DNA of 64,000 nucleotides from an uncultured Acidimicrobiales bacterium. Its GTDB lineage: Bacteria > Actinomycetota > Acidimicrobiia > Acidimicrobiales > JAHEJN01. The stretch's first letter is position 1. Every line of letters starts with the position of its first letter. The DNA lies in assembly GCA_963787285.1 (NCBI GenBank), contig CAWBCM010000017.1, forward strand, positions 1,013-65,012, given 5' to 3'. Positions 35,009 to 59,093 of this stretch are shown one piece after another. Both the position numbers and the translations under genes were made by a program. The notes below the pieces were generated by a model. That model did no database searches. It worked only from the letters and a program-made list of their open reading frames with translations, and had not been told where the DNA came from.

Positions 35009-35018
35009 TCGTTGTCGC

Positions 35019-35813: not shown

Positions 35814-36706
35814 CGGCGTCTCGCCCGTACGAATGAAAGAACAGCTCGGTGAGGTCGGGCTCCTCGGCGGAGATCGTGACGACGCCGTGGCGAACGATGG
35901 CCTTGAGGAAGTCGTCGGCCCGACCGTCGAGGCGGCAGGTGAAGAGCGATCCGTCGATCGCGGCGTCACTGACGCCCGCCACAGCCGCGAGCTCCGCGAT
36001 GGGCACAGGATGATCGAACAGGACCTCCACGTGTCTCACCGATCGCTGTCCGAGCTCGTGGATGCTCTCGACGGCGACCAGGCGCCCGGCGCGGATGACT
36101 CCGACCCGGTGGGCGCACCGTTGCACCTCGCTCATGACGTGCGACGACATGAACACCGTCCGTCCCTCCACCGCGACCTCGCGCGTCAAGGCAACGAACT
36201 CGGCCTGGAGGAATGGGTCGAGTCCACTGGTCGGCTCGTCGAGGACGAGGAGCTCGGGCTCGTGCATGAACGCCTGGATCACCCCGATCTTCTGGCGGTT
36301 GCCAGCGCGAGAGCGTCTTCACCTCGCGAGTCGTGTCGAGCCCCAGCCTCTCGGCCAGATCATCGATGCGGGTCGCCGTGACGCCACCCCGGAGGTTGCC
36401 CAGGTAGGTGAGGATCTCACGCCCGTTCTGGCGGCCGTCGACCACGAAGTCACCGGGCAGGTAACCCAGTCGCCGCCGCAGCTCGACTCCCTCTGACCGA
36501 GGATCGAGGCCCAGAACCTCGATTGCGCCGCTGGTCGGTCGGATCAGATCGAGGAACAGGCGAATCGCCGTGGTCTTGCCGGCACCATTGGGGCCGAGGA
36601 ACCCGAACACCTCACCGGTGAACACCTCGAGATCGAGACCGTCGAGGCCCCGAGCGGTGCCGTAGTCCTTGACCAGCGCCTCGGTTCGAATTGCAGCTTC
36701 GGGCAC
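35803..36706 (-). CDS. ABC exporter ATPase; one frameshift near 36305
   Basis: GPNGAGKTT in one frame; LDEPTSGLDP and SSHVMSEV in the next. Confidence 0.88.
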
Positions 36707-39427: not shown

Positions 39428-40324
39428 TCAGCCGGCCACGTCGAGGTCGTCGGCGTACCGGGTGCGACAGCCCGGATTGCAGAACCAGAAGTCGGTGCCG
39501 TCGGCATGCAGGTGCGGAGTGTCGGGCCTGACCACCACCGTCATGCCGCACACCGGATCGACGGCTTCGGTCGGCGGCTCGACGCGACGCGACGACGGAG
39601 GCGCGACCAGCCCCTGCATGCGAACCGCGGCAACCACCTGGGCCATGATCGAGAGCGCGATCTCGTGGGCGGTGCGGGCGCCGATCTCGATACCGACGGG
39701 CGTGTGCACGCGTGCTCGCTCGTCGACGGTGAGCTCCATGGCATCGATCACCGCCGAGCCCCGCCTGTGACTGGCCACCAGCCCGATGAAGCCGGCGCCG
39801 GCATCGAGCGCGGCGCGAAGGACGGCCTCCTCGTTGCGGCCGTGGCTCGACACGATGACCGCGGTCGCGGCGTCGTCGAACTCGCCGGGGACATCGGTAC
39901 GCACCGCGAAGCCGAGCGGAGCCGCCAGCTCGGCCAACGCCTGGGCGATGGGCGTGTTGCCGGCCACGGTGAGGACGGGCGCGGGAAGGCGCGGCTCGAG
40001 GAACACCTCGATGGCCCCGCCCGACAGGCACGGATTGACGACGGTCTGGGAACCGGGCGAGTCGGGGAACACCTCGTCGCCGTCGGGCAGAATTCTCAGC
40101 AGAAGTGTGTCGGCCGTGTCGATCACCTTCATGGCCGCCGTGCGTACCGACTCCTCGGCGCACTGGCCGCCGACGAATCCCTCGATCGAACCGTCGGCCA
40201 GGACGATCGCCCCGTCACCGGGTCGAGCCGACGTCGGGCACTGGGCCCGGACGACGGTGGCCTGCACGAACGGGACTCGACTGGTGATCAACTCGCTTGC
40301 TCGAGCGGCAATCGACTGCGCCAT
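39428..40324 (-). CDS. XdhC/CoxF-CoxI family maturation factor with C-terminal YHS domain
   Basis: GFVGGQCAE, NPCLSGGAIEVFLEP, PVGIEIGART..EIALSI; then DPVCGMTV...FCNPGC. Confidence 0.88.
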   Translation of the reverse strand: MAQSIAARASELITSRVPFVQATVVRAQCPTSARPGDGAIVLADGSIEGFVGGQCAEESVRTAAMKVIDTADTLLLRILPDGDEVFPDSPGSQTVVNPCLSGGAIEVFLEPRLPAPVLTVAGNTPIAQALAELAAPLGFAVRTDVPGEFDDAATAVIVSSHGRNEEAVLRAALDAGAGFIGLVASHRRGSAVIDAMELTVDERARVHTPVGIEIGARTAHEIALSIMAQVVAAVRMQGLVAPPSSRRVEPPTEAVDPVCGMTVVVRPDTPHLHADGTDFWFCNPGCRTRYADDLDVAG

Positions 40325-40343
40325 GGTGACGGGCTCCTGGGCC

Positions 40344-42733
<2,390 letters not shown>

Positions 42734-42737
<4 letters not shown>

Positions 42738-43228
42738 GAGGCACCTCCGACGGTCGACGGGGGATTCGGATCTCGGCGTTGGCCGCCCACTGGATGGAGC
42801 GCACGATGGTGGAGTACCCGGTGCACCGACAGATCTGACCCGAGATGGCTTCGCGGATCTCGTGCTCGGTGGGGTCGGGATTGTCGGTCGAGCAGGGCTC
42901 GAGCGGTCATCATCATCCCCGGGGTGCAGAAGCCGCACTGGAGGCCATGGCACTGCATGAATCCCTCCTGCACCGGATCGAGGACGCCGTCGACCTCGAG
43001 GCCCTCGACGGTGCGGACCTCGCGCCCGCCGGCCATGGCGGCCAGCACGGTGCACGACTTCACGGGTTCGTCGTCCATGAGCACCACACAGGTGCCGCAG
43101 TTGCTGGTGTCGCAGCCCCAGTGGGTGCCGGTGAGGCCGAGGTGATCGCGGATGAAGTGCACGAGGAGCAGTCGCCCCTCGATCTCGCTGGTGACTTCCT
43201 CACCGTTCACGGTCATGGTTACGTGCAT
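42734..43228 (-). CDS. coxS: CO dehydrogenase small [2Fe-2S] subunit; frameshift near 42885
   Basis: [21 protein letters not shown]; GQICRCTGY in the next frame. Confidence 0.93.
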
Positions 43229-43229
43229 G

Positions 43230-44117
43230 TCAGGCCTCCTGACCGTTGGTTCCGGTGATTCGGGCCACCGAGCGTCGCAAGGCCCGGCGGGTGAGCTCGT
43301 CGGCCAGGTGGCGCTTGTAGGCCACCGTGCCTCGGGAGTCGGCGCTCGGTCGCGACGCCTCGGCGGCGAGGGCGCCGGCAGCGGCGTACAGCTCTTCGGA
43401 GGGCACCTGGCCGCGAAGCGCCTCGGAGATCGCTCCGATGCCGGTGGTGTTCGGGCCGACGGCGGCCAGGCCGACCCGGGCGTCGCTGATGGTGTCGCCG
43501 TCCATCCACACGGCCGCACCCGCGGAAACGATCGCCCAGTCACCGGCGCGCCGTTCGACCTTCTCGTAGGCGCTCGAACCGTTCGGGCGGATCGGAATGC
43601 GGATCTCGGTGAGCATCTCGGCGTCCTCGACCGCGGTCTCGTAGGGCCCGCGATGGAATTCGTGCATGGTCAGCACCCGTTCGCCGTCGGAGGAGCGGAT
43701 GACACAGCTGGCGTCGAGGGTGGTGCACACCGCCGACAGGTCCTCGGCCGGATCGGCCTGGCAGAGCGAGCCGCCGAGGGTGCCACGGTTGCGTACGACC
43801 GGATCGGCGATCACCTTCTCGGCGTCGCGAAAGATCGGGAAGGCGGCCGCCAGCTCGTCGGACTCGAGCAGCTCACGATGCCGGGTCATGGCACCGATGC
43901 GGAACTCGTCGCCCTCGACCCGGATGTAGCCGAGCTCGTCGTGCAGATCGTTGATGTCGATCAGGTACTCGGGCGTGGCGAACCGCAGCTTCATCATCGG
44001 CAGGAGGCTGTGGCCGCCGGCGACGAGCCGGGCCTCGCTCCCGAGCCTCTCCAACAGCGCGATCGCGTGATCGACGCTGGTGGCACGTTCGTACTCGAAC
44101 GGTGCTGGCACCTGCAT
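43230..44117 (-). CDS. coxM: CO dehydrogenase medium FAD subunit
   Basis: [41 protein letters not shown]. Confidence 0.94.
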
Positions 44118-44177
44118 GGCTTCCCCCTACTTCCGTGGTGTCGCCACCTTGGGTCGCCGGCGGGGCGCGCGTCAACA

Positions 44178-44203
44178 CCAACCTAAGCGGTTGGTTAAGT
44201 TGG
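44178..44203. promoter_or_regulatory. Inverted repeat between coxM and the LysR gene, candidate LysR operator
   Basis: CCAACCTAA-N8-TTAAGTTGG (one mismatch), overlapping the LysR -10 TAAGTT. Confidence 0.55.
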
Positions 44204-44207
44204 GTTG

Positions 44208-45164
44208 GTGACTCCTGCACAACTGCGTGCGTTCAGCACGGTCGTTCGTCTGGGAACGGTGAAGGACGCGGCCGGCGAGCTCGGCGTGTCCGATGCGGCG
44301 GTGTCGGGACACGTGGCCCAGCTCCGCAAAGAGCTCGGCGACAAGCTGTTCACCCGGTCGAAGTCGGGCCTCGCCTTCACGCCCGGCGGCCTCCGCCTGG
44401 CCACCCGGGCCCACGAGATCCTCGGGCTGCAGGATCAGACCGTGCGCGAGGTGAGCGAGGCGGGCCAGGGGCGACGGGTGCTGCGCCTGGCCGTGTCGAG
44501 TCTCTTCGGCGAGTACGCCGCCCCGGGGTTGATCGGACTGTTCTCGACCAGATCCGACGACCTCGACGTCGAGATGAGCGTGCGTCCCCCCGGGCACTTC
44601 GCGGCCTTGTTGGCTGGCCGGTCCGCCGACATGGCCATCGGCCCGACGATGCAGTCGCTCGACGAAGCGATCGGTCAAAAGCCCTTCCTGAAGTACCAGG
44701 TGGTGGCCGTGGCCGGGCCGACCCATCCTCTGGCTCGGCAGCGGCTGAGCGCAGCTCAGCTCTCGAAGCAGATCTGGTTGCTCGGGCCCGAAGCGGCCGA
44801 CGGTCGGGGAGTGGTGACGGCGATGGTTGCGGCGCATCGGGTGCCCGAGGCGAACCAGCGCATCTTCCAGAGCCACGCGGCCGCGCTCGAGGAGACGCGT
44901 CGCGGTCGCGGAATCGGCCTGGCCGTCGAGTTCTCGGTCAACCAGGATCTGGCCGATGGTCGGCTGGTGCGCGTCGAGGGGCCCGGAACCCAGAGCGGGG
45001 GAACGTGGAGCGCGATGACCCTGAAGGGAACCGATCAGGCGTCGGCGGCGGCCGAGCTCGGCCGCTTCATCACGACGCCGCGGGCGACCCAGGCCATGCT
45101 CAATGGATCGGGCGCCGACATCTCGCGGTTTCGCCCTTCGGTGCACATCACGCTGTGGCGGTGA
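44208..45164 (+). CDS. LysR-family regulator divergent from cox (CutR-like)
   Basis: TPAQLRAF...AAGELGVSDAAVS...LRKELGDKLF.R HTH; position matches mycobacterial cutR. Confidence 0.9.
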   Translation: MTPAQLRAFSTVVRLGTVKDAAGELGVSDAAVSGHVAQLRKELGDKLFTRSKSGLAFTPGGLRLATRAHEILGLQDQTVREVSEAGQGRRVLRLAVSSLFGEYAAPGLIGLFSTRSDDLDVEMSVRPPGHFAALLAGRSADMAIGPTMQSLDEAIGQKPFLKYQVVAVAGPTHPLARQRLSAAQLSKQIWLLGPEAADGRGVVTAMVAAHRVPEANQRIFQSHAAALEETRRGRGIGLAVEFSVNQDLADGRLVRVEGPGTQSGGTWSAMTLKGTDQASAAAELGRFITTPRATQAMLNGSGADISRFRPSVHITLWR

Positions 45165-45173
45165 CCGTGACCT

Positions 45174-45833
45174 TCAGCAGGTCCAGCTCATGTCGGACAG
45201 GCCGATGCGTTGATTGGCTCCGCCGGTGCTCACCGCATTGGTGTAGCGGAAGGCGAACGACGTGATCGGTCCGGCGTAGGTGAGAGTCAGGTTGCCCCTG
45301 TTGTCGGTGTCGCCGAAATTGGTGTTGAGCAGGCTGTTGCGGAAGAGGTTGCCAGCGGTGCCATTGCCGATGACGGTACTGCCGGCGGGAATGGTCGACG
45401 TGTAACCAGTGGTGAGCATCAGGATGCGATCACCCCAGCCGCCGACCAGGTTGTCGATGTCGTAGAACGTGAAGACGACGTTCGACACGGGTGCGCTGAA
45501 CGTGAAGGTGACGTTCTGGCCGATGCCGATCGCGTTGGGAAGCTGCTGGAACTGCAGTGCCTTCTGATTGAACGAACCGTTCGGCGACGCGCGAATCGTC
45601 CGGTTCGTCGCCAGGAGGGTGGTGCCGGCGAGCGGGGCCACGGTCAGCGTCACCGAGACGCCGTTCACGACCGACGTTGTGTAGGTGGAGCCGGTCACCA
45701 GCGAATCCCAGTCGAGTGTGCCTGGCATGCAGCTCACCATCGCCGCGGCGGCATCGAGCCCCGTGACCGACGGAGCCACCCATGCTGCGACGCCGGCGAC
45801 GCCACCGATCAGAAGGCGGCGACGATCGGTCAT
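45174..45833 (-). CDS. Secreted hypothetical protein with twin-arginine-like signal
   Basis: DRRRLLIGG..AAWVAPSV..AAAA; T/N/G-rich, beta-strand-like mature part. Confidence 0.7.
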   Translation of the reverse strand: MTDRRRLLIGGVAGVAAWVAPSVTGLDAAAAMVSCMPGTLDWDSLVTGSTYTTSVVNGVSVTLTVAPLAGTTLLATNRTIRASPNGSFNQKALQFQQLPNAIGIGQNVTFTFSAPVSNVVFTFYDIDNLVGGWGDRILMLTTGYTSTIPAGSTVIGNGTAGNLFRNSLLNTNFGDTDNRGNLTLTYAGPITSFAFRYTNAVSTGGANQRIGLSDMSWTC

Positions 45834-45983
45834 GAGCATCGAGCCCCACGTGGGCGTCGAGACCCTAGATGGTTCTTGCTGATATCTGGCCATTCGGTTG
45901 ACACTCGAGCATCCAGCGACGGGGATTCGAACCGTGGGCTGCGCGCAAGCTACCCGGTCGACGGAGCGATGTCGATTCAGCCG

Positions 45984-47903
45984 TCATGGTTCGTCGTCGG
46001 CCGACGGCTGCTCGAGCTGTTGGAGCATCAGGATGCCCGCGACGTTCATGAAATCGTGCTCGGTGACCAGCCCGACGAGCACGCCGTCGTCGACCACGGG
46101 GAGGGCGCCGATCCCGAACGATCGCATGATCTCGAGCGCTCGCAGCGGTGGCATCGACGGTGCCACGCACACCGGGTCGCGCTGCATCACGTCACCCACG
46201 CACAGCTCGGCCCAGCGGGCGCCGTCGTCGGCCATCACCCGCAGCAGGCGGCGGTACGAGAGGATGCCGATGATCCCGTCCTTGTCGTCCTCCACCAGCA
46301 CCTGACGGAGCCGGTGCCAGACCATGAGGTTGGCCGCCAGATCCAGCGGATCGTCCTCGGCGACCGTGACGAGCTCGCTCACCATGATCTGCTCGATGGA
46401 TTGGAAGTTGTACTGCCAGCTGCCGCCCTCCTCGAGGCTGGCCGCCGACCATTCCGACACCGGGTTCCCGACCTGTTGGCGGGCGGCGATGGCCGCAGTG
46501 AGGCTGTTGAGTCGCTGCCCGAGCGAACCCTGCTGGCGCATCGACAGCATCGATGAGACCTGCCAGCGCGAGCCCGTGTACCCCGACTTGACCCGGCGTT
46601 CGACGATGCCCAGGTAGTGGTCGCGGTCGGCCGGGGACACCCCAGCGGCATCGAGCCCCTCGGCGGCGACGGGCAGGAGCACGTCGAGGAGGAGCTCGGG
46701 TGCCGGCCGCTCCTGGCCGTCGATCCAGGTGAGCGACGACGACAGCCCCTCGCGGGCCGCGTTGACGAAGTTGTACCGCGTCGTGGCGAACTCCGTCATG
46801 CGGCTGACCTCGGGATGCTGGGCGCCGATGCCCCGCATCAGGCCGAGCCACAGCGCCGCGTTGGCCATCTCGTCGGCGGTGGTCGGACCTGACGGCAGCA
46901 CGCGATTCTCGATCCGCAGATGCGGCACGCCGTCCATGACTCCGTAGCAGGCCCGATTCCATCGCCACACCGTGCCGGTGTGCAGCCGCACTGCCGCGAG
47001 GTCGGGGATCTCGCCCCGGGCGAGCACCTCGAAGGGATCCTCGTGGGCGTCGGGCGCCAGCAACGGCCGGAAACGGGTGATGTCCTCCTTGAACAGCTCG
47101 GCCACCGACTCGTGGACCCAGTCGGTGCCGAAGGTGACCCGTCCGGAGCGTTGCCGGAGGCTGTGGCTCGACCGACGGGTGTCGACGGACTGTTCGAACA
47201 GCGGTATCCGGGTCTCGGCCCACAGCTGCTTGCCGAACAGGATCGGCGAGTTGGTGGCACACGCCAAGGTCGGGCCGGCCAGCAACTGGGCCACGTTGTA
47301 GAGGTTGGCGAACTCCGCCGGCGCCACCTGGAGGTGGACCTGGAAGCTCGCGTTGCAGGCTTCGGCCATCACCGAGTCCTGACGTACGTGCAGCTCGTCG
47401 GCGCCCGAGATCTGGACGTGGAGGTCTTCGCCGCGCAGGTCGAGCAGTGCCTGGTTGAGCGCGAGGTACCGGGGATTCTGCACCATGTTCGACAGCGCGA
47501 GACTGCTCATGCGAAGGGTCGGCAGGATGCCGGTGAGCACGATCTCCTGCTCGAGTCGATGGCCCGCTCGACGAGCAAGTGCGAGCAGCTCGTCGAGCTG
47601 AGCGTGCATGTCGCTGAAGCACGATCCGGCAAAGGGTTGCGGGTCGAGATTCACCTCGAGGTTGAACGCACCGATCTCGGTCGTGAAGTGCGGATCGGCG
47701 ATGACCTCGAGCATCTCGAGGGCGGTCGGCGATGGTTGCCAGCCCCGATCGACCAGGAAGAACTCCTGTTCGGCGCCGATGCGCGGGTTCCCGGTCTCGA
47801 ACATCTCGTGGTCGAGGAGGTGCTCGAGGGCGTGCACATCGCGCAGCATCCAGTTCACCGCGGCCCGGCGCTGGGCGACTCCGGTGGCCGTCTGGGCTCC
47901 CAC
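45984..47903 (-). CDS. Glutamate-cysteine ligase (GCS2)-like carboxylate-amine ligase fused to a C-terminal CBS pair
   Basis: IGAEQEFFLVD, TTEIGAFNLE, EACNASFQVHLQV, NSP, ETRIPLFEQS, GTVWRWNR, HLRIENRVLPSGPT; CBS motifs IEQIM.., VGDVM.., LPVVDDG.LVGLVT. Confidence 0.88.
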   Translation of the reverse strand: MGAQTATGVAQRRAAVNWMLRDVHALEHLLDHEMFETGNPRIGAEQEFFLVDRGWQPSPTALEMLEVIADPHFTTEIGAFNLEVNLDPQPFAGSCFSDMHAQLDELLALARRAGHRLEQEIVLTGILPTLRMSSLALSNMVQNPRYLALNQALLDLRGEDLHVQISGADELHVRQDSVMAEACNASFQVHLQVAPAEFANLYNVAQLLAGPTLACATNSPILFGKQLWAETRIPLFEQSVDTRRSSHSLRQRSGRVTFGTDWVHESVAELFKEDITRFRPLLAPDAHEDPFEVLARGEIPDLAAVRLHTGTVWRWNRACYGVMDGVPHLRIENRVLPSGPTTADEMANAALWLGLMRGIGAQHPEVSRMTEFATTRYNFVNAAREGLSSSLTWIDGQERPAPELLLDVLLPVAAEGLDAAGVSPADRDHYLGIVERRVKSGYTGSRWQVSSMLSMRQQGSLGQRLNSLTAAIAARQQVGNPVSEWSAASLEEGGSWQYNFQSIEQIMVSELVTVAEDDPLDLAANLMVWHRLRQVLVEDDKDGIIGILSYRRLLRVMADDGARWAELCVGDVMQRDPVCVAPSMPPLRALEIMRSFGIGALPVVDDGVLVGLVTEHDFMNVAGILMLQQLEQPSADDEP

Positions 47904-47924
47904 GTCAGATCCTCCCCTGGGCCG

Positions 47925-48654
47925 TCATGTCAGCTCCGCCAGGTATCCCGGCAGCATGGCGCGCCAGGTCTGCCAGTCGTGGGGCCATTCTGGCCCCCAC
48001 GGGTCGACCCGGTTCGGGACACCCGCCTCGCCCAGCACGTGGGCGGCCTGCCAGGTCTCGCCGATGTCCTCGTTGGCCCCGCCGCCGCAGGCGAGGACAA
48101 CGGATCGTTGGCGCAGGCGATCGAGCTGGTCGCCATCGACGGCGCCGAGGTAGTGCACCGGTGAGGCCCAGAGGAAGTTCTCGTCGGACGGGCCGTTCAG
48201 GAAGCGGCCGAGGTCGTAGGTGCCGCTCATGCAGATGGCCGTGGTGAAGACGTCGGGATAGCGGCACAAGGACGCCAGGGCGTTGTAGGCACCGATCGAC
48301 GCTCCGGCGGCGATGATCTCGATGGTGTCGCTGTGGCAGTCGGCGCGGATGGCGGGCACCAGCTCGTGGCCGACGAACTCGACGAAGCGGCGCAGGATCC
48401 AGCTCAGGTGCCGACTGTCGCCCTCGTGGGTCAGCATCGCCCGCCCGTTGACGCTGTCGCAGGAGTAGATCTTGATCCGCCCCTCGGCGATGAGGTCGGA
48501 ACAGGCTTCGACCACGTGGAAGCGCTCGATCTCCTCGGCGTCGCCGCCGGCGGTCGGGAAAGACGAGCACCGGGCGGCCGATATCGCCCCAGCGGGCGAC
48601 CTCGACGGTGCGGTCGAGGTGGACCGAATGCCACCGGTCGGTGAGCTTGGTCAT
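47925..48654 (-). CDS. Alpha/beta-hydrolase (putative esterase); frameshift near 48560
   Basis: WGDIGRPVLVFP-TAGGDAEEIE across the indel, GASIG nucleophile elbow, MSGTYD, WPHDW. Confidence 0.85.
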
Positions 48655-49893
48655 GGGCGCTCGCGTCCTCGCGCCACTGCTGGATGCGCGACCAGAACAT
48701 CTCGGTGAACTCGTCGACCTCGTGCTCGGGGTACATCGCGGCGACCTTCTGCCGGACCGCGTCGTGCGCGGTGTCGGTGCCGAAGAAGTCCCAGAGCACC
48801 TGATCGAGATGCGACGAGGTGCTCGGCGCAGAACGCCTCGAACTCGTCGGCCTGGAGACGCTCGCGGGCGATCGCGGCGTAGCCCCTCAGCTTCTCCTCG
48901 TACGGGAGCGTCGGTGTCGGCGATGTCGAAGTAGGGCTGCCAGTCGAGGTTGGGTCGCATCGGCCGCTTGCGTGGCGGCGCAGAAGAGCGACCAGCGGAG
49001 GTTGGCGCCGATCAACCAGGGGAAGTGGTAGTGCAGCGAGGTGACCTGCGAGTCGGGGCACGGGTTGGCGAAGTCGATCGGGAACCAGCGGCCGTCCTGG
49101 CGCAGCGCCTCGCACGAGTTGAAGTCCCAGCCGAAGAACGAGTTGATCGTGAGCGTCGTGTCGATCAGATGCTGGCGCTGGTCGTCGGGAAGGGCGCCGT
49201 CGTCGGACGTGTAGCGATCGTGCAGCGGTGCGCCGGGGTCGTAGCGCACCACGCGCACCTGCGGGCCGAGCCCGACGCAGCGGATGAACAGGTCGTGGGG
49301 ATCGACGGCCTGCTGCAGATGCATCAGGTAGGTGCCGCTCTCGTCGTAGAGCCGCTGGAGGTCCTCGGCGTCGTCGATCCGGCTCACCCCGGCCCAGCCG
49401 CCGCCGTCGTACGGCTTGATGTACATCGGGTAGCCGACCTTGTCGCCCAGCTCGTCGAGGTCGAACATCTGGGCGTAGCGCTCGAGGGTGACCTCGAGGT
49501 CGGCCTGTGAGTCGTAGCTCTTCGGCGGCACCATCCACGTGGTCGGGATCGGCATGCCGAGGCGCATCATGGCGCAGTACGACGTGTGCTTCTCGTTCGA
49601 CTGGATCGACCACGGGTTGTTGAACACGTACAGGTCGTCCATCAGAACGGCCTTCTTGATCCACTCGCGGCTGGTGCCGTACCAGTGCGTGAGGCGGTCG
49701 ATGACCAGGTCGTAGCGAACCGGTTGGCGAAGGTAGAACGGTTCGATCGTGACCCGTTCGACGTCGAAGCGGATGGCGTCGCCGTTCGATGGCCACGGCG
49801 AGGTCGAGGCGATCGAGCATCTGCTTCGTAACAGATCGGCCAGCACAGGTCGGCGCCGAGCGACAACCCGATGACGCGCCGCACATCAGCCAT
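48651..49893 (-). CDS. ATP-grasp ligase (RimK/glutathione-synthetase-like); frameshifted
   Basis: IDRLTHW, NNPWS..EK, VGYPMYIKPYDGGGWAGVS, LQQAV, DFNSCE, IDFANPCPD; indels near 49830, 49790, 48960, 48895 and 48810. Confidence 0.85.
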
Positions 49894-51059
49894 GTGAATC
49901 CCCTGAGTCGGTCGCAGGCAAGGTAGCAGAGGGCGGGGGCCGCTCGAATGGCCGTACCTCGCGAGGGCGGAACGCGTCGGCGAACAGCCACGGAAGGGCC
50001 ACGCCGAGCATGTCGCGCCAACATCCCCACGTGTGGCCGTCGAGGGCCTCACCGGCGATCGACTTGCATGCCGGTGTCCTTCAGGATGGGCCGCAACGCG
50101 CGGTTCTCGCAGATCAGCGGTTCGAACACCCCACAGCTCATGAAGACCCGGTCGGCGACGGCGACGGGATCGGCAACATAACGCCGGACGAAGTCACCCA
50201 CGGGCACCCAGATCGCGTCGGTGCGGTCGAGGCAGCCGACGCCGACGCCGGCGAAGGAGCCCGACTGCAACATCAGCCGCCCGAAGCTGTCGGGGTAGCG
50301 GGCGGCGGTCGACAGCGTGGCGACGGCGCCGAAGCTGGCGCCGCCCAGGCACCGGGCGTCGCGTCCCTCGAGCAACGGGAGGTGCGCCTCGAGGTACGGC
50401 ACGAGCTCCTCGGCCACGAATCGGGCATGGCGTTCGTCGTCGGCGTACTCGACGAGCCGATCGTGGGGATCGCAGAACGCAACCACGAGCTCGGGTACCA
50501 GACCTCGGTGGATGAGGTTGTCGAGCACGGTGGACGCGGCGGCGTAGTGGAGGTAGTCGGTGCCGTCGTGCAGGACCATCAGCGGATACCGGTGCTCGGG
50601 ATCCGTGCGGAACGACGCGGGCAGGTACACCGTGACCGGTACCGGTCGACCGAGCGCGGCACTCGGAATGGTCAGTGAACGGTGTGATCCGGGCTCGGCC
50701 GATGCGTCGTGCAACGCCCACGGCGGCACCTCGTAGCCGTGCGAGCGACAGACCGAGTTCTGTCCGAAGGGATTGCGTGCCTCGTACGGGTTGAGGGGAT
50801 CCTCGATCACCCGGTGGTTGCCGTTCTCGCAGATCTCGAGCTGGTACTCGAGTCGGGTTCCCTCGGGCAGCCCGAGCGCAAGCAGCCACCACGTCGACTC
50901 GCCGAGACGCTCGAAGTGCAGGTCTTCGGGCAGGCCGATCCCGAAGTGCACCAGGCGGACCGACTCGACGTCGCCGCGATAGGCGAACGTGGTCGCTCCC
51001 TCGGCGAGGAGGGGGAAGCCGCGGTCGAACACCAGACGATCGAGTACCAACGGCGTCAT
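49886..51059 (-). CDS. Enterochelin-esterase-like alpha/beta-hydrolase with N-terminal Ig/CBM48-like domain; frameshift near 50060, start may be 51105
   Basis: RLEYQL, DPLNP, VYLP, HDGTDY, RLVEY, GASFG, QSGSF; DGHTWGCWRD in the next frame. Confidence 0.85.
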
Positions 51060-51101
51060 GGCAGGGTCGAGGTCGAGCCGCGGCGCGAGGACCGCCTCGG
51101 C

Positions 51102-52328
51102 TCATGCGGCGTGCACCTTCACCTTGCGGCCGATGTCGTCGAGCACATCGCGCAGGCGATCGAAGTCGGGATGGCGAGCCCGAATCCAGGCATTGGCCAT
51201 GTAGCCGGCGGCCACCGGCTGGGTCGGGGTGCCGACCTCGGGGAGGTGGGCGTCGATGATGAGGTCGCCGTAGCGCTCCTGGATCTCGTCGATGCCCGAG
51301 TAGCCCGAGATCGACCCGTCGGCTTCGGGCCGGAGGGCGATGATGCCTGCCGAGAACCGACGCGACGGCAGTCTGACGAGGGCGCCCGTGCACGATGGCC
51401 TCGGCCCACTCGCGGTAGATGTCGATGTCGTTGCCGGCGCCGTAGAGGTCCCACGCCCTCACGCCGGGAGGGCGGCAGCCGATCTCGGAGAACTTCAGAC
51501 CCTTCGGCCCGGCGAACCACTCCATGTGGGTCGCCGAGGTCCCGATGCCGAGGGCATCGATGACCCGTCGACCCATCGCCTTGACCTCGTCGTAGCCGGG
51601 GGCGGAGTCGACACGGTTGGTCGCGATGAACTGGGGCGAGATCCAGCGCGTCCGCATGGCCTCGAGGACGTTCGGGTAGTAGTGGCTGACGAACTCGTGG
51701 ACGACCTCGCCGTCGACGGTGATCGTGTCGTAGAAACCTTCGTGGCCCTCGATGAACTCCTCGACGGCCACGGTGGCGCCATGAGCCAGGCCACTGCCGG
51801 CGATGGCTCGCTCGAGGTCGTCGTCGTCGTCGACGCGGTGCGTTCCCGATGCGCCGGCACCGTCGGGTGGCTTGATGATCAGCGGGATAGCCCGACCTCG
51901 GCGGCAAAGGTGCGCACCTCGTCGGCGGTGGCCGCCCCGGTCGATTGCGCGCACGGGACGCCGGCGCCGCGCAGCACTTCCTTCATCGCCGGCTTGTCAC
52001 GGCAGAGGTGGGCGGTGCGCACCGAGGTGCCGGGGATGCCGCAGGCCTCCCGGACACGGGCGGCGGTCATGATGTGGGCCTCGACGGTCGCCTCGAGCCG
52101 GTCGACCCACAGACGGTCCTGGATCCACCGAACGGCCCGCTCGACGGAGTCGTCGTCGACCACCGAGCCGACCTGCTCGTAGTGCGTCAACCACCCGGCG
52201 ACATCGTCGTCGAGACCCTCCTTGGGTCGCTCGCCGATACCGATGACGGTTGCGCCGGCCTCGGCCAGCGCCCGTGCGAACTGCTTCTGGTTGTCGGGAA
52301 AGCTCGGCTCGAGCAGGATCACGTTCAC
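51102..52328 (-). CDS. ATP-grasp domain ligase; frameshifts near 51890 and 51360
   Basis: CRDKPAMKEVL, PLIIKPPDGAGASGT, EEFIEGHE, THMEWF, FSEIGCRPPG. Confidence 0.87.
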
Positions 52329-52405
52329 CCCACAGTTGTACCCGCTACCGCGGCCGCCGTCGTCCGGTCGACGTCGCGGTGACGGGTGCAGTACGGTCGC
52401 TCACC

Positions 52406-53627
52406 GTGGTGAATGTCGTGTTCGTTGCCCCGTACGTGCTCGATGCGACCAACCGTTTCCTCGGTGCGATGGTGCAGGTCCCGGGCGCCGATGTCGCCGT
52501 CGTGAGCAGCGATCCGCTCGAACGATTCCCCGACCACATCCGTGACGGACTCGTCGGCCCACTGGCGGGTCGACGACTGCCTCGACGTCGACCAGCTCGC
52601 CACCGCGGTGGCGGCGCTGCACTCCGCCCGCGGTGTCGACGTGCTCACGGCGATCCTCGAGAACCTGCAGGTGCCGATGGCCGAGGTCCGAGAACGGCTC
52701 GACCTTCCCGGCATGGGTGTCGAGGTGGCCGAGAACTTCCGCGACAAGGCTCGCATGAAGGCGGCCTTCGAGGCGGCCGGCATTCCGTGCGCCCGCAATG
52801 CCCGGGTCGACTCGGCGGCGCAGGCGCGTGACATCATCGGGCGCTGGCAACCGCCGGTGGTCGTGAAACCGCTCGCCGGAATGGGAGCTCGCAACACCTT
52901 CCGCATCGACGACGCAGAGACGATGGAGCGGTGGTTGGCGCACCGCCCGCCGTCGCAGGACGCGCCCGTGTTGCTGGAGGAGTTCCTCGTCGGTCAGGAG
53001 TTCTCCTTCGAGAGCGTGCTGGTCGACGGCGAGCTCGTGTGGCACTCGATCGGCCGCTACGACCCGACGCCGCTGACCGTGCTCGAGAACCCGTGGATCC
53101 AGTGGTGCATCGTGCTGCCTCGGGAGATCACCGGCGACGAGTTCGCCGACATTCGCGACGTCGGCACGCGCGCCGTCAAGGCGTTGGGGCTGACCACCGG
53201 GCTGTCACACCTCGAATGGTTCCGACGGGTCGACGGTTCGCTGGCGATATCCGAAGTGGGTGCGCGGCCACCGGGGGCGCAGATCGCGTCGCTGATGTCG
53301 TGGGCCCACGACACCGACATGTACGCGGCGTGGGCCCGACTGGTGGTGCACGGCCAGTTCGATCCCCCGGAACGCCGCTATGCCGTCGGTGCGGCGTACC
53401 TTCGAGCCCAGGGTGCGGGCCGGACCATCACGTCGATCACCGGGATCGATCGCGTGAGTCCCGACACCCATGCCCTGGTCGTCGAGTCGCGGTTGCCCGA
53501 GATCGGCAGCCACGCCGCTGACACCTACGAGGGTGACGGCTACGTGATCGTCCGGGGGGCCGACACCGGCGAGGTCGACGCCGCCCTCCGCGACATCGTC
53601 TCGACGATCAGAGTGGAGTGCGGCTGA
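52406..53627 (+). CDS. ATP-grasp domain ligase; frameshift near 52555
   Basis: FRDKARMK, VVKPLAGMGA, EEFLVGQE, SHLEWF, ISEVGARPPG. Confidence 0.87.
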
Positions 53628-54846
53628 TGGATGTGGTGTTCCTCTCACCGGGCTATCCGACCGACATCCCGTTGTTCGTCTCGGGCCTGGCCGCCGTCGG
53701 GGCCCGGGTGATCGGCGTCGGCGATCAACCCGTCGACTCCCTGCCCGAACGGGCGAAGGCCGCGCTGTCCAGCTACATCGAGATCGGGTCGTGGGCCGAC
53801 GAAGACGCGGCGATCGCCACGGTGCTCGGCCGGCTCTCGGGCCGCAACGTCGATCTGGTCGAGACGCTGTGGGAGCCGACCATGGTCATGGCCGCGCGCC
53901 TTCGGGAGGCCATCGGCGTCCCGGGAATGACCGTCGAGCAGACCGTTCCGTTCCGAGACAAGGGCGAGATGAAGAAGATGGTCGAGGCCGCCGGCCTGCG
54001 CACCCCCCGCTCCGTGCGGGCGTCGACTCGTGACGCCTGCCGGGAGGCGGCGGCCGGCATCGGGTATCCGGTCATCATCAAGCCGATCGCCGGTGCAGGG
54101 GCCATGGACACCCACCGGATCGAGAACGAGGCCGAGCTCGAGGAGGTGCTCGCCGGGTTGGGTCACGTGCCCGAGGTGAGCGTCGAGGAGTTCATCTCCG
54201 GCGACGAGTTCACCTACGACACGGTCTGCGCCGCCGGATCCATCGCCTTCGAGAACGTGTGCGAGTACCGCCCGAATCCGCTCATCGGCAAGCAGGTCGA
54301 GTGGATCAGCCCGCAGGTGATCGCCTGGCGGGACCTGACCGACCCGTTCATCGCCGACGGGGTGGCGCTGGGGCGCAAGGTGATCGAGGCGATGGGCGTG
54401 CAGAGCGGGTTCACCCACATGGAGTGGTATCGCACGGCGAACGGCGAGGTCGTCTTCGGGGAGATCGGCGCCCGATCGCCCGGGGGTCGCCTGACCGACA
54501 TGATGAACTACGCGTGCGACACCGATCTCTACACCGGCTGGGCCGAGGCCGTCTGCTACGGCACCTTCGGTCAACCCCGACCGAACGCCGGTACAACGTC
54601 GGTCAGGTGATCAAGCGGGCCCAGGGTTCGGGCGTGGTCACCCGAATCGAGGGACTCGGCGCCATGATGGCCACGATGGGCGAACACGTGGTCAACGTCG
54701 ATCTCGTTGCGCTGGGGGCGCCGCGGCGGGACTGGCGGGCAACCGTCTTGTCCGACGGGATCATCGTCGTGCGCCATCCCGACCTCGACACCACCGTGGC
54801 GATGGTCGACCGCATCGCCGCGGACGTCCATTTGTTCTGCGACTGA
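53627..54846 (+). CDS. ATP-grasp domain ligase; frameshift near 54580
   Basis: FRDKGEMK, YPVIIKPIAGAGA, EEFISGDE, THMEWY, FGEIGARSPG; TGATG overlap with the upstream gene. Confidence 0.87.
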
Positions 54847-54917
54847 CCGAAGGGTGGCCATGGCGCTCCGCTAGTGTCGACCAGCATCGGTGAGCTCGCA
54901 ATGGTGGTCGAAAACGC

Positions 54918-55700
54918 ATGACGTCGAGCCGGGGCATGGTCGCGGCAGTGGTCCTGACGGTGGCTTCGTTGGGGGCGGGTTGTTCGGCGGAGGTCACGTT
55001 GCCCGTCGAGAGCTCGGTCGGCACCGAGGTTCCCGAGCCGACCACATCGGTGTCCCCGGAACCCGAGCCGACCACGCCCGCCGCCCTCCCCACGCCCGCG
55101 CCCAGCCCGAGCGGCACCGCACCCAAGCCCACGCTCGAAGTGCCGCCGCCGCAGTCGGTGGGAGCGCTGGGCGAGATTCGCGGTGTGGCCGAGCTCCCGC
55201 CCGGGGATCCGGGCTACGACGCCTTCGTCGAGGTCGGGGACGACCAGGGCCTGATCACCGTGTCGGCGCCCGCCGTGTGGACCGACGTCGACGGACGACC
55301 GTGGTCGGGTGGGGACTTCGTCGATGGCGACGATCTGATCGGACCGGCGTTGAGCGTCTCCACCGACGTTGCGGCGTTCAACGCGGGATGGGGGACGCCC
55401 GGCGTGTTCATCGGCGCGTCCGACCGGCTCCCCTTCGAGTCGCCCGAGGAGGTCCTGGAGGCGTCGTCGTTCGGTGACGAGTGCGTCCTCGAGAGCACGC
55501 GACCCTACGACGACGGCGTCTACCGCGGTGCCTTCGACCTGTACATCGACTGTGGCGCCGAACGGAGCGTGTTCGTGAACCTCGTGGCCGAGCCGGCGGA
55601 CGGGTCCTTCCTCGTCCTCGTGCAACTCGTCGCAGTGAGCGACGCCGACTGGAATGCTCTGGCCACGATCCTCGACACGTTCCTGGCCGATCTGGCCTAG
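54918..55700 (+). CDS. Hypothetical lipoprotein
   Basis: Lipobox GAGC, Pro/Thr linker, acidic globular domain with a Cys pair. Confidence 0.75.
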   Translation: MTSSRGMVAAVVLTVASLGAGCSAEVTLPVESSVGTEVPEPTTSVSPEPEPTTPAALPTPAPSPSGTAPKPTLEVPPPQSVGALGEIRGVAELPPGDPGYDAFVEVGDDQGLITVSAPAVWTDVDGRPWSGGDFVDGDDLIGPALSVSTDVAAFNAGWGTPGVFIGASDRLPFESPEEVLEASSFGDECVLESTRPYDDGVYRGAFDLYIDCGAERSVFVNLVAEPADGSFLVLVQLVAVSDADWNALATILDTFLADLA

Positions 55701-55707
55701 CCGTCGG

Positions 55708-56497
55708 TCAGAGCGCGATCGAGGCGCGCAGGCTCGGGGGTATCGGCTCGATTCGGTGTTGGTCGGCCAGGTTCTGCCACCAGTTCTCGAACTCGACGGC
55801 GTCGAGTCGGTTGTGCCAGCCGAGGTTGCGCGACCGGGTGCTCTCGTCGTAGTCGGCGTAGGTGGAGATTCGGAGCTTCTTGGTCAATGCAACGCCGGCG
55901 TCCATCGTGTGGAGATGGACCAGGAGCAGCTCTTCGTCTCGGGGAAACGAACCGTGCGCCTGGTGGAACCCGTGTTCGTACTCGGACCGGCCGGGTCACC
56001 ACGGTCGCCTTGTCGAAGTTGAGCCGTCGGAACCACAGCGACCTCTGGGCCAGGATCGGCCGCGTGAGGTCGATGGGCGCCTCGGTCTCGCGGTCGTGCC
56101 AGAGCTGATAGCCGGTGCAGCGCACGGCGGGGCCGTCGAGGAGGTCGGCGAAGCTCGACAATCCGGCCGGGTGCCAGATGATCTCGTCGGACTCGGCGAA
56201 GATCACCACACGATTCCGGCGGAGCAGTTCGGCCTGGAGCTCCTCGATGCGGCGGGTGTACCACTCGAAGTCGTCGTAGGCCGCGTGATCCTCGCGGTGC
56301 AGCGTGCACCCGTAGCGATCGCGCACCGCCTCGGCGCTACCGTCGGTGCCGAGATGGTCGAAGACATGCACACGCTCGGCAGGGAAGAATCGCCGGTAGT
56401 ACTCCACCCAGATGGGAAGGAACACCGACTCGTTGCGGGCCATGGTGAACACCGCTGTGCCGGCCGGTCGATCGTTGGGCCCTGACGACATGGACAT
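55708..56497 (-). CDS. GT-A fold glycosyltransferase (Glyco_tranf_2_4-like); frameshift near 55985
   Basis: TMARNESVFLPIWVEYY, FDHLGTDGS, AESDEII, GFH and LVHLH in the next frame. Confidence 0.75.
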
Positions 56498-56566
56498 GAG
56501 GAGAGACTTCCACGACTCGACCCCTCGCCGAGGCCACGGCCGCATCGGTCGCCGGTGTCGGTTGCG

Positions 56567-57406
56567 ATGAGGCGCCTCCGCCGATCACGCGTCGGCTGCA
56601 TCTTCCGTGGGCGGCTCGGCAATCAGATGCTGACCACGGCCGCCACCTTGGCCCACGCATGGGATCACGATCTGCGGCCGGTCTTCGGGTACTGGCAGCG
56701 AACCAATATCAGTGCGGTCGAGCACACGGGTTGGAACACCGTGACCCGAGCCTTCCCCCGACTGGCCACCGGTCCCTTCGCCTACTTCGGCCCGTCGACC
56801 TACGTGATCCGCGAGCGCGATCACACACCGACGAACCGACCCCTGCGCCACGTTCCGGGCCACGATCGCATGCTCGACGGGCTGTTCTCCGACGAGCGGT
56901 ACTTCGTGCGCCACCGGGCTCGGTTGCTCGACATGTTCCGACTCCCGCCCCGCCGTGCGCAGCCGTTGCGCGAGAAGTACGCGGCGGTCCTCGACGGCAC
57001 GACGGTGAGCCTGTCGGTGCGTCGTGGCGAGTACGCCCAGCCCGGACAACAGGTCCTCCGCCGCCTCGATCTCGAACCCGAGTGGTATCACCGGGCGCTC
57101 GAGCAGATCCCCGAGGTCGATCGCGCCCTGGTGTTCTCCGACGACCCGGAGTGGTGTCGTGAGCACCTGCGCATCGATCTCCCGACGACCATCGTGGCGG
57201 GCAATCGCGCCGTCGACGACATGATCCTGATGTCGTGGTGTGACCACCACGTGATCCCCAACTCCACCTTCGCCTGGTGGGGGGCTTGGCTCGACCCCGA
57301 TCCCTCGGCGGTCGTGGTGCAGCCCGACCGCTGGGTCACCGACTTCGGCCGCGGGCGGCTCGGCGACTGGAACTGCGGGAACCCCACCGGCTGGGTTCAG
57401 CTCTGA
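56567..57406 (+). CDS. Alpha-1,2-fucosyltransferase-like (GT11)
   Basis: GRLGNQM, SVRRGEY (variant of HxRRGDY), VFSDDPEWC, NSTFAWWGAWL. Confidence 0.88.
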   Translation: MRRLRRSRVGCIFRGRLGNQMLTTAATLAHAWDHDLRPVFGYWQRTNISAVEHTGWNTVTRAFPRLATGPFAYFGPSTYVIRERDHTPTNRPLRHVPGHDRMLDGLFSDERYFVRHRARLLDMFRLPPRRAQPLREKYAAVLDGTTVSLSVRRGEYAQPGQQVLRRLDLEPEWYHRALEQIPEVDRALVFSDDPEWCREHLRIDLPTTIVAGNRAVDDMILMSWCDHHVIPNSTFAWWGAWLDPDPSAVVVQPDRWVTDFGRGRLGDWNCGNPTGWVQL

Positions 57407-57446
57407 GCGTCGCGCCCTGCGAGGCGTGCGGTCGGTGACGATGTCA

Positions 57447-57971
57447 TCAGGGTGAGATCGGCCGCCTGGCGCTGGCCGCCATGGGGTTGCCGTCGGCACC
57501 GAAGGCGATGACCGACCACGTCATGCCGTTCGAAACGGCTGGTCCGAGGGCATCTTCGTCGAGCTTCGGTGCGCCCCCGACCGGGACCGAGGTGTCGGAG
57601 GTGCGCCAGCCCCAGTAGATCTTCTCGGCGGGGGAGAACAGGGCCACGATGTAGTAGTCGGCTCCCTCGATCGATGCCCACTCGAGCACCGGCCTCCGTC
57701 CGCCGCCCTGCGTCTCGGTGGTCTGCTCGAGTCCGGGAAGATCCAGATCGGCGGCGAACGCCGGGAAGTCGACGGAGGGGGTGGCGGCAGCAGTCGGCGT
57801 TGGCGCAGCGGCGGTGTCGGCGGCCGGGGCCGTGGCCGTGGGAGTCGCCTCGGTAGGTGTGGTCGCGCTCGGAGTCGGTGGCGTCGTCGTGGCCGGCAAC
57901 TCCGTGTCGTTCCCGCCGCAGCCCCAGCCGAAGACCGCAAGAGCGAGGAGAAGAGGGATCAGTCGTCTCAT
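57447..57971 (-). CDS. Hypothetical lipoprotein
   Basis: Signal MRRLIPLLLALAVFGWGC, Thr/Pro/Ala linker, beta-rich domain; ATGA overlap with the upstream gene. Confidence 0.75.
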   Translation of the reverse strand: MRRLIPLLLALAVFGWGCGGNDTELPATTTPPTPSATTPTEATPTATAPAADTAAAPTPTAAATPSVDFPAFAADLDLPGLEQTTETQGGGRRPVLEWASIEGADYYIVALFSPAEKIYWGWRTSDTSVPVGGAPKLDEDALGPAVSNGMTWSVIAFGADGNPMAASARRPISP

Positions 57972-59093
57972 CCGGCCCCTCCCAGCAGGCTGATCACGAT
58001 GGCGAGCGAGGACGTCGTCACCCTCCTGCGCGTCGGGATGGTCGGCGGCTGCCCGGGCATCGCTTTGCATGCGCTGCTCCATGAAGTCGGCGCCCTCGGC
58101 GTTCACCGCGCCCTCGCCGATCGCCCCGCCACTCGACAGAATCGCCACGAGCTGGACGAGATCGCGGAGGTCGACCTTGCCGTCGGCGAGGATCTGGTTG
58201 TCCATGGTGAGATTACCGAGCGTGAGCATCATGTTCGTCAGGGCGTTGACGTACTCCGCGATGACGTCGTCGCCGAACTGGGCCCGTTCACACAGCGTCA
58301 GGTTGTTCAGTTGATTGACGAGGACCACGGCCCTCGTCACGAGATCCCAGACCGTGTCCCAGGGGACCACGGGCACCCCTTGAATTTGGGGCTGTAGCCA
58401 CACCGTCTCCATCTGCTGTCGAAGGGCGACGATCTCCGGGATCACCTCCTCGATCTGCTCGCGGGCCTCCTGGTCGTCATCGGGCGGTAGGAGCAGGGCG
58501 TGCCAGTTTCCGGCGAAGGTGGGGGAGAACTGCTCGGCTCCGAGCATCGTGTTCCACGACATGATCCACTCACCCCACGCGTCGTTGCACAGAATGCCCG
58601 ACACTTGCAGCGCAATGGGACCGAAGGGGTCGGAGGCCTCGATCGGCATGCTGAAGCCGGCGTCGGCCTCGATGAAGGTGCCGGTCGACTGGATCGTGGA
58701 TGCGCCCAGGTTGAGCTCGCTTCGGGTGCCGGTGATGGGGCCCGCAGCCGAGTGCAGCAGGCCGACCTCCCCGTTGAGTTGTCCAGCAGGCGTGGCGAAG
58801 GTGAGAGTCCATCCCGTCACACCGTCGGTGAGCTCCCATTGACCGGTGGTGGAGCCCGAGAGCGGAACCTGCATCGCGAGGTCGACGGCGAAGGTGCCGT
58901 TGATGGTGATCTTGCCGCCGGCGGCAGTCGCCTCGGTTCGGCCGCCGGCCTCGGCGGAGCCCGTCCAACCACCGGGGGTCAGCTCGTCGAAGCCATCGAC
59001 TCCGGCTCCGGCCGGCGGCACGAGCGTTGCCGTCAGAGCAAAGGCCGGCACCAGAAGGCCCAATCGAAACCACGACCGCCCGACATTCCGCAT
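57968..59093 (-). CDS. Secreted hypothetical protein; probable frameshift near 58005
   Basis: Signal peptide ending PAGA; G/T-rich beta region then a helical region; -10 TACTGT 6 nt before ATG. Confidence 0.7.

Follow-up and report, generated by a model that had tools for sequence, protein, structure and literature searches.

A conserved ATP-grasp ligase and esterase gene cluster associated with glycogen genes in several bacterial phyla

Gene content and enzyme families of the cluster

We analysed a stretch of 64,000 nucleotides from an uncultured Acidimicrobiales bacterium (contig CAWBCM010000017.1 of assembly GCA_963787285.1, positions 1,013 to 65,012; the whole stretch is hereafter called the window), which contains a compact cluster of ligase and hydrolase genes. 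The genome (G000) has 3.2 Mb on 21 contigs and is 87% complete. Genes in the window were chosen by third-position G+C, the region having 68% G+C. As proposed in a preliminary description made from the DNA letters alone, the cluster at 45984-54846 consists of seven tightly packed genes in two divergent units, with G, E2, A2, E1 and A1 running leftward and A3 and A4 rightward:

45984..47903, minus strand: G, GCS2-like carboxylate-amine ligase (residues ~1-495) with a C-terminal CBS pair; 639 aa, frame unbroken
~47925..48654, minus strand: E2, small PF00756 serine esterase; 242 aa in the related genome G002
~48651..49893, minus strand: A2, putative divergent ATP-grasp ligase with a C-terminal helical domain and without a Pfam family; 411 aa in G002
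~49886..51104, minus strand: E1, serine esterase with an N-terminal beta-sandwich (Fes-like / CBM48-CE1-like); 405 aa
~51102..52328, minus strand: A1, L-amino-acid-ligase-like ATP-grasp protein; 407 aa in G002
52329..52405, no strand: divergent intergenic region, 77 nt between the starts of A1 and A3
52406..53627, plus strand: A3, ATP-grasp paralogue; 407 aa in G002
53627..54846, plus strand: A4, ATP-grasp paralogue; 405 aa in G002

In G002, which belongs to the same genus, the cluster is intact; neighbouring genes of a unit either overlap or are separated by 21 nt, and 77 nt again divide the two units, a gap that presumably serves as a shared promoter region. The protein family tests were run on the intact G002 proteins, none of which reached any curated NCBIfam model.

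A1, A3 and A4 are assigned to the ATP-grasp superfamily by Pfam scores above the curated cut-offs. A1 scored 33.5 bits with CPSase_L_D2 (cut-off 19.8) and 30.7 bits with ATP-grasp (cut-off 27), A3 scored 27.3-30.9 bits with ATP-grasp_4 (cut-off 27), and A4 scored 28.8-32.7 bits with ATP-grasp_4 (cut-off 27) and 25.3-28.7 bits with CPSase_L_D2. The three proteins had been described as paralogues sharing three motifs, and this description holds: they are 33-39% identical to one another, and each contains RDKxxMK (at 51981, 52740 and 53954 in A1, A3 and A4, respectively), HxEW (51514, 53205 and 54413) and E[IV]GxRxPG (51463, 53253 and 54461). The best sequence matches of A1 in the PDB are L-amino acid ligases (LALs), namely RizA (4wd3, 1.2e-15), BL00235 (3vot, 9.6e-11) and BacD (2.9e-8). 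The LAL-specific flanking domains stayed below their cut-offs in A1, A3 and A4 (LAL_C2, 19.6 bits against 29.4; ATPgrasp_N, 19.5-23.4 against 27), and the scores with the LAL equivalog models were far lower than required (BacD, 22.6-39.4 bits against 850; DdaF, 18.9 against 840).

A2 matches no Pfam family, and its scores with the RimK-type models are low (rimK_fam TIGR00768, 20.1 bits with a cut-off of 143.4; LysX, 17.8 with a cut-off of 275.6). A profile of 12 orthologues gave a weak match to D-Ala-D-Ala ligases (Ddl; E 5e-4). The AlphaFold model of A2, of only moderate quality with a mean predicted local distance difference test (pLDDT) score of 71.8, matches ArgX (3vpc, Foldseek E 6.3e-9), followed by RimK and Ddl (to 1e-7; TMt 0.43-0.65), and we assign A2 to the ATP-grasp fold on the basis of this model. 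The model has an extra C-terminal helical domain of ~120 residues. The invariant columns of A2 include K159, DGGGW and D273..N276.

The CBS pair of G is well defined, with 87-88 bits in two stretches (cut-off 24) and profile matches to CBS-pair structures down to 1.5e-25. Its GCS2 part (PF04107) scores 19.4-19.6 bits, under the Pfam cut-off of 21. In the ESM Atlas, the clusters closest to G bear PF04107 (score 0.93; 22 of 30 matches), which we take only as a lead, and the EQE, H, E, N and RIENR columns are invariant in 17 orthologues. Over residues 1-640, G is 95.6% identical to its G002 orthologue. When its alignment profile was compared with PDB sequences, only CBS-domain chains were found among the 60 matches listed, with no solved relative of the ligase domain.

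E1 and E2 are classified as PF00756 (CE1-type) serine hydrolases by their scores and conserved catalytic residues. With a cut-off of 22, E1 reaches 70.7 bits in the window and 75.5 in G002, and E2 reaches 44.6 and 46.8 bits, respectively. Ser257 (GASFG) and His357 (DGH) of E1 are invariant in 26 sequences, as are the GxSxG Ser119 and His225 of E2 in 24 orthologues. The E1 model (pLDDT 90.4) aligns over whole chains with two kinds of enzyme: the enterochelin esterase Fes, at TMq 0.66-0.69 and TMt 0.69-0.71, and feruloyl and acetyl-xylan esterases of the CBM48-CE1 type, at TMq 0.55-0.57 and TMt 0.63-0.65. With the CBM48-CE1 structures 6rzo, 7b5v, 7b6b and 8bbp, the alignments span 356-367 columns. 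The fold search thus agrees with the Fes/CBM48-like N-domain noted earlier, and E1 is modelled as a CBM48-like beta-sandwich preceding a CE1 domain. With the enterochelin esterase equivalog NF007758, E1 scored 93.9 bits against 222 and is not a Fes orthologue. Judging from the look of its N-terminus, E1 probably lacks a signal peptide. E2 found only generic CE1-type esterases among PDB sequences and has a weak Peptidase_S9 match.

Outside Acidimicrobiia, E1 has a conserved C-terminus, ...PGPLWMVYE, and 47 of 74 E1 sequences end in [VIM]Y[ED]. A complex prediction of A2 with E1, using the sequences of locus L042, gave a score of 0.00 in two runs without controls and speaks neither for nor against binding. 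Five long A2 proteins were found. In P0121 (723 aa, from one metagenome sequence), A2 and E2 seem to be cleanly fused by a linker of ~70 residues, and it is the single such fusion; it may be a Rosetta-stone hint that A2 and E2 work together. P0122 and P0125 are apparent read-throughs over frame errors, and P0123 consists of A2 followed by a long hydrophobic tail.

Two known kinds of cluster were considered and rejected. A graspetide or other cluster for a ribosomally synthesized and post-translationally modified peptide would need a precursor peptide gene; there is none, and the overlaps and the 21-nt and 77-nt gaps in G002 leave no room for one. A pathway for a siderophore independent of non-ribosomal peptide synthetases (NRPSs) was discarded because siderophore genes are absent and E1 is no Fes orthologue. 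The earlier statement that precursor, exporter and NRPS genes are missing is correct for the window, and clustering of the open reading frames (ORFs) of 80 related loci (see below) showed no recurrent exporter family. No Rfam family reached its gathering score in the window or in loci L038, L042, L050 and L072, and there was no riboswitch clue to a ligand.

Conservation and association with glycogen genes

Among 8,000 scored candidates, 5,453 were relatives of A2. The 120 relatives listed are 65-88% identical to it, and none has a functional name or a Pfam family (they are 'hypothetical protein' where named). Identity is 63-88% across at least 8 phyla, and in the ESM Atlas A2 falls into a cluster of its own with 8,601 members and without a common Pfam family; one neighbouring cluster is auto-named 'Glutathione synthase family protein'. 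No other gene of the system is as conserved as A2. The system is patchy in the window's class, where 11 of the 151 genomes sampled have it.

When one genome was scanned for each species, at least 583 A2 loci were obtained. The locus counts below refer to the best 80 of these, many of which are cut by contig ends; they come from Acidimicrobiia, Eisenbacteria, Binatia, Myxococcota, Gemmatimonadota, Planctomycetota, Acidobacteriota, and Gamma- and Alphaproteobacteria. The genes co-occur strongly across phyla: A2 is present in 80 loci, E1 in 74, E2 in 73, A1 in 52, an S51-like gene in 48, A4 in 43, G in 39, A3 in 35, and a GlgA-type GT5 gene in 27. The core E1-A2-E2 is near constant (74, 80 and 73 loci).

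The S51-like gene has no match in the window's genome (87% complete). The nucleophile-elbow and His motifs of its product were aligned to dipeptidase E structures; by sequence the assignment is weak, with Pfam E-values of 9e-5 to 0.004, below the cut-off, and a best PDB profile E-value of 0.13 (peptidase E-like). AstE/AspA-like hydrolases accompany the genes in 11 loci (8 + 3).

A divergent core was found in locus L012 (G021:C117, 7405-11820), with the order E1-E2-A2-G, 32-44% identity and a G protein without the CBS pair. The same bacterial order thus contains a second subfamily of the system. The genes beside this core (MFS, ankyrin, enoyl-CoA hydratase and DUF4388) give no functional clue. 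Six genomes of the class of G043 encode a distant relative of A2 (E 1e-32 to 1e-47) that is shorter, at ~320-350 aa.

Outside the window's lineage, the genes form a larger operon, [A4 A3] GT5-A1-S51-E1-A2-E2-G-AstE. The GT5 protein passes the NCBIfam models for glgA (TIGR02095, 549.9 bits with a cut-off of 328.45; NF001899, 469.4 bits with a cut-off of 459), and by these scores the module-linked GT5 of other phyla is assigned as glycogen synthase GlgA. In all three large genomes checked, it is the only strong match to PF08323 (Glyco_transf_5). In L038, GT5 and A1, A1 and S51, and S51 and E1 overlap by 4 nt each. Further genes of the glg type stand near the module in the 80 loci (GH77 amylomaltase in 8, GH57 in 5, glgB in 5 and glgC in 2). 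In G042, glgC and glgB directly follow the cluster, and in G041 glgB directly precedes it. An alpha-glucan gene is present in 22 of 32 loci of at least 17 kb outside Acidimicrobiia.

Two genomes from other families of the window's own class show the same association. In G172, the order is glgB(-) | E1 A2 E2 glgA(+) | glgC(-), where the gaps measure 8-21 nt and A2 is the only ligase, and in G074 the genes A3, A4, S51, E1, glgC, glgA, E2, A2 and glgB are interleaved. At the level of genomes, GlgA is found in 11 of 11 A2-positive genomes in the sample of the window's class, compared with 27 of 140 others. In the class of G043, GlgA is present in 13 of 13 genomes with a strong A2 and in 86 of 108 others. 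GlgA lies within ~7 kb of A2 in 7 of these 13, and 5 of the 7 have a second GlgA elsewhere, which suggests that the GlgA next to the module is a dedicated synthase paralogue.

Frame breaks in the window copy and its surroundings

Frameshifts had been suspected in the window, and they are present in the record. In a three-way alignment with G001 and G002 (same genus, 87-89% DNA identity), six of the seven genes, all except G, are frame-broken by 14 insertion events relative to both genomes between 48556 and 54575 (12 single letters and 2 pairs of letters), many of them outside homopolymers; this alignment contains no frame-breaking deletion in the cluster. The breaks are distributed as follows:

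E2: insertion near 48556 (two frames)
A2: insertions at 48657 (+2), 48816, 48903, 48968, 49785 and 49823
E1: frame break near 50059-50061
A1: insertions at 51101, 51369, 51884 and 51891; three high-scoring segment pairs in frames -3, -2 and -3
A3: frame break at 52546
A4: two-letter insertion at 54575

The breaks are very probably insertion errors of the assembly, because all of them are insertions, none of the seven genes is broken in G002 (in G001 only G is, once), near-identical metagenome contigs lack the extra letters, the ratio of nonsynonymous to synonymous substitution rates (dN/dS) is low, and the assembly has other faults. Logan contigs from four sediment metagenome runs (2 studies) were compared over 40000-58000. 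Among the rows listed, contigs of 98-99% identity lack the extra letters at 10 of the 14 events. All covering contigs are without the extra letter at 48816, 48903, 49788, 49823, 50061, 51371, 52549 and 54580+54583; events 48657, 51101, 51884 and 51891 lie outside the rows listed. Between G000 and G002, with the extra letters dropped, dN/dS lies at 0.105-0.143 in the seven genes, compared with 0.042-0.255 in five neighbouring ones, and no internal stop remains save one in G.

Similar clumps of one- or two-letter insertions relative to G002 occur in the 64 kb at 34856-36304 and 42502-42886. The latter lies inside the large-subunit gene of a molybdopterin dehydrogenase, where the six letters in total leave the ORF open, and a metagenome contig lacks the letter at 42566. 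Both clumps are likely the same kind of assembly error. The first 2155 nucleotides of the window have 40.7% G+C, compared with ~68% elsewhere, and match SNF2-related (158.8 bits) and Helicase_C (75.8 bits) domains in frames split by intron-like gaps; synteny with G002 starts at 2156. The contig start looks like a chimera in which a eukaryote-like fragment of 2.1 kb was joined to the bacterial contig. The genome's own glg locus, on contig 7 at 58-65 kb (L097 and L100), has glgB in two frames and a TGA inside glgA, which suggests indel or base errors in the assembly.

Genuine decay, including a very recent one private to this strain, in which the insertions would be real and the genes pseudogenes in this genome, whatever their role elsewhere, appears improbable. 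It would account for the concentration of breaks in the cluster, since only ~2 of the window's 28 remaining syntenic ORFs switch frame, and at 48555 and 48967 some of the depth in metagenome contigs supports the window's letters. The runs compared hold 0.19-0.34 of the sampled words, so that the same strain is not established. However, decay does not explain why 14 of 14 events are insertions and none is a deletion, why dN/dS resembles that of the neighbours, or why like clumps occur in other genes of an assembly with further defects. The frameshifts, which had been named as possible signs of a decayed cluster, thus look artefactual, and clumped assembly insertions of this kind can mimic a decayed cluster in genome annotation.

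The cluster is flanked on the left by a xanthine-dehydrogenase-type molybdoenzyme set and a LysR regulator and on the right by unnamed genes and a GT11 glycosyltransferase. The former encodes a molybdopterin dehydrogenase with three subunits, a member of the xanthine/CO-dehydrogenase family (39428-44126, minus strand; FAD-binding and molybdenum-cofactor-binding), and is syntenic in G002 and unrelated to the cluster; the LysR gene (44205-45164) is divergent from it. Between the LysR gene and G lies an ORF of 239 aa (45174-45893, minus strand) without a Pfam or NCBIfam match. It is missing from G002, which has 20 bases there, and is partial in G001, and looks like a lineage-specific insertion beside the cluster.

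Possible function and relation to known systems

We tentatively interpret the module, with a probability of roughly 0.4, as a cytoplasmic system that writes and erases acyl or aminoacyl esters on alpha-glucan. Beyond the gene content, folds, catalytic motifs, conservation and glg link, which are observed and mark a functional and widely conserved module, we infer a substrate, a bond type, a direction and a mode of regulation as follows. The core, the A2 ligase flanked by two CE1-type esterases with conserved catalytic motifs, would work on an alpha-glucan (glycogen or malto-oligosaccharide); in the window's lineage it is extended by the putatively CBS-regulated, GCS2-like G and the LAL-like A1, A3 and A4. 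The ligases would activate a carboxylate, most likely that of an amino acid, as an acyl phosphate, transfer the activated group to a hydroxyl of the glucan and lengthen it to a short peptide. The ester-linked groups would be removed by the esterases or passed on through an acyl-Ser intermediate, and in other phyla the S51-like peptidase and the AstE/AspA-like hydrolase would assist in removal. The CBS pair of G may couple the cycle to adenylate levels.

This reading is proposed because it combines the acyl-phosphate chemistry of ATP-grasp enzymes, the ester chemistry of CE1 enzymes and Fes, and an N-domain in E1 of a glycogen-binding kind. ATP-grasp enzymes make acyl phosphates that are attacked by amines, thiols or hydroxyls, and some, such as VanA and the graspetide ligases, are able to form esters. 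CE1/PF00756 enzymes hydrolyse or transfer esters on sugars, Fes cleaves aminoacyl esters, and a domain of the kind found at the N-terminus of E1 binds glycogen in CBM48 proteins. We count the fold match of E1 to CBM48-CE1 sugar esterases and Fes, the invariant Ser and His motifs of both esterases, the relation of A1 to dipeptide-forming LALs and the ATP-grasp fold of A2 as chemical support. Reversible aminoacylation of a glucan was among the options of the preliminary description; glg genes interleaved with the module in many lineages, and the confinement of A2 to GlgA-bearing genomes in two class samples, speak for it, whereas the cluster of the window's lineage holds no glg gene.

Several observations weigh against the write/erase interpretation. 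No glycogen gene occurs in any of 19 Acidimicrobiia-type loci, and in G000 itself glgA, glgC and glgB lie on a contig separate from the cluster. The genome-level counts cover related genomes and are not independent tests, and GlgA is common anyway in the second class (99 of 121 genomes). Gene neighbourhood can mean co-regulation rather than a common substrate. The fold of E1 is fitted by Fes at least as well as by CBM48-CE1 enzymes, and the LAL-type ligases, the S51-like and AstE-like enzymes and the GCS2 protein point to a peptide chemistry free of sugar. We know of no case of amino-acylated glycogen, and our full-text literature searches gave no description of it. A wider claim, that the glycogen of many phyla carries ester-linked amino acids or short peptides, with A2 writing the first ester, LAL/GCS2-type ligases extending it, and the CBM48-bearing and small CE1 esterases erasing it together with S51-/AstE-like peptidases, is unlikely at present. 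If it were true, glycogen would be a combined store of carbon and nitrogen, or a regulated scaffold.

The enzymes might instead make and recycle a free cytoplasmic oligopeptide or poly-amino-acid for storage, osmotic or stress purposes, a second reserve whose only tie to glycogen is co-regulation. It would be built by the LAL-like ligases together with A2 and G, and the S51-like, AstE-like and alpha/beta hydrolases would degrade it. We regard this main alternative as doubtful but worth serious consideration, since the closest relatives of A1, A3 and A4 are L-amino acid ligases that form dipeptides, G is GCS2-like, the S51-like protein with motifs aligned to dipeptidase E is found in 48 of 80 loci, AstE/AspA-type hydrolases occur in the 11 loci mentioned above, E2 has its weak Peptidase_S9 match, and module and glg genes stand apart in the window's lineage. 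However, a free peptide leaves unexplained why the minimal E1-A2-E2 set sits directly in a glgB/glgA/glgC locus without LAL ligase, G or peptidase, and why start/stop codon overlaps run from glgA through E1. E1 moreover has the fold of sugar and aminoacyl esterases, not of peptidases, and the S51 assignment is weak by sequence.

A role in protein modification is far less probable. According to this explanation, A2 would be a protein-tail ligase of the RimK/LysX/ArgX kind acting on the C-terminal ...VYE of E1 (or on GlgA), while the other ligases and the S51-like protein would lengthen or trim the tail, as part of a protein-modification or carrier-protein pathway. The top fold matches of A2 do include ArgX with LysW and RimK with S6, and the [VIM]Y[ED] ending of E1 co-occurs with the S51-like gene (40 loci with both, 21 with neither, 4 with S51 alone and none with the ending alone; n=65 evaluable loci). 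This co-occurrence largely tracks phylogeny, and the small-molecule ligases of the Ddl type match A2 equally well. The window's lineage has neither the ending nor the S51-like gene, and it and others possess intact A2 and E1 without the tail; therefore, tail ligation is not the core function. The least probable of the explanations considered is a glutathione-like low-molecular-weight thiol or gamma-glutamyl compound, made by the GCS2 ligase and ATP-grasp synthetases, with Esterase-D-like thioesterases recycling acyl adducts. It would suit the GCS2-like G, the inclusion of S-formylglutathione hydrolases in PF00756 (FrmB is at rank 49 of the E1 fold matches) and the automatic name of the Atlas cluster neighbouring A2. 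However, the minimal forms have no G, nor do 41 of the 80 loci (some of them truncated at contig ends), the scores with EgtA and GCS2 stay under their cut-offs, and the glg linkage, the three LAL paralogues and the CBM48/Fes-like domain are left unexplained.

Decoration of glycogen, if true, would be a categorically new polymer modification and a new use of ATP-grasp enzymes. The repeated insertion of the module into glgA/glgB/glgC operons suggests an unrecognised step in bacterial glycogen metabolism, a pathway that is usually deemed complete. If the product is a free peptide, it would nonetheless be a reserve or stress compound that is new, widespread and connected with carbon storage. A2 itself represents a family of thousands, from Actinomycetota to Proteobacteria, for which we found no Pfam family, curated name or paper.

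No description of an ATP-grasp/esterase/glycogen cluster was found in the portion of the full-text literature that could be consulted, and neither a curated family nor a paper was found that assigns it to a characterised pathway. The parts belong to known superfamilies, none of them to a curated functional family, and no paper found describes their combination or its setting among glycogen genes. The cluster is akin to amidoligase-plus-hydrolase systems. A survey of amidoligase gene neighbourhoods by Iyer, Abhiman, Burroughs and Aravind (2009, Mol Biosyst 5:1636; PMC3268129) is said to describe ATP-grasp/GCS2-type ligases together with hydrolases, with predicted roles in peptide synthesis or protein modification, and the cluster may be listed there or in its supplements.

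Comparison with individual known systems shows both shared parts and clear differences. The L-amino acid ligases RizA, BL00235 and BacD share the ATP-grasp core of A1, A3 and A4, with weak matches in ATPgrasp_N and LAL_C2. Unlike them, A1, A3 and A4 are three conserved paralogues within one system, linked to esterases and glycogen genes and not to an antibiotic cluster. The predicted fold of A2 matches RimK/LysX/ArgX and D-Ala-D-Ala ligases, but A2 has the additional C-terminal helical domain of ~120 residues, stands beside two esterases and shows 63-75% identity across phyla. E1 has the two-domain architecture (beta-sandwich and alpha/beta hydrolase) and the conserved Ser and His of Fes and the CBM48-CE1 esterases; in contrast to these, it is encoded without siderophore or xylan genes and, outside Acidimicrobiia, carries the ...VYE end. 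The N-terminal ~495 residues of G resemble YbdK/GCS2 ligases and EgtA, from which G differs by its fusion to a CBS pair and by a score of 13.9 bits against 370.8 with the EgtA model. The cyanophycin system was considered and rejected, as the CphA models gave 25-43 bits with cut-offs of 850-877 and G000 contains no S51-like match at 87% completeness. Cyanophycin synthetase and cyanophycinase likewise pair an ATP-grasp ligase with an S51-family hydrolase, as the present system does in other phyla, in the setting of a storage polymer, but here the Mur-ligase domain is absent.

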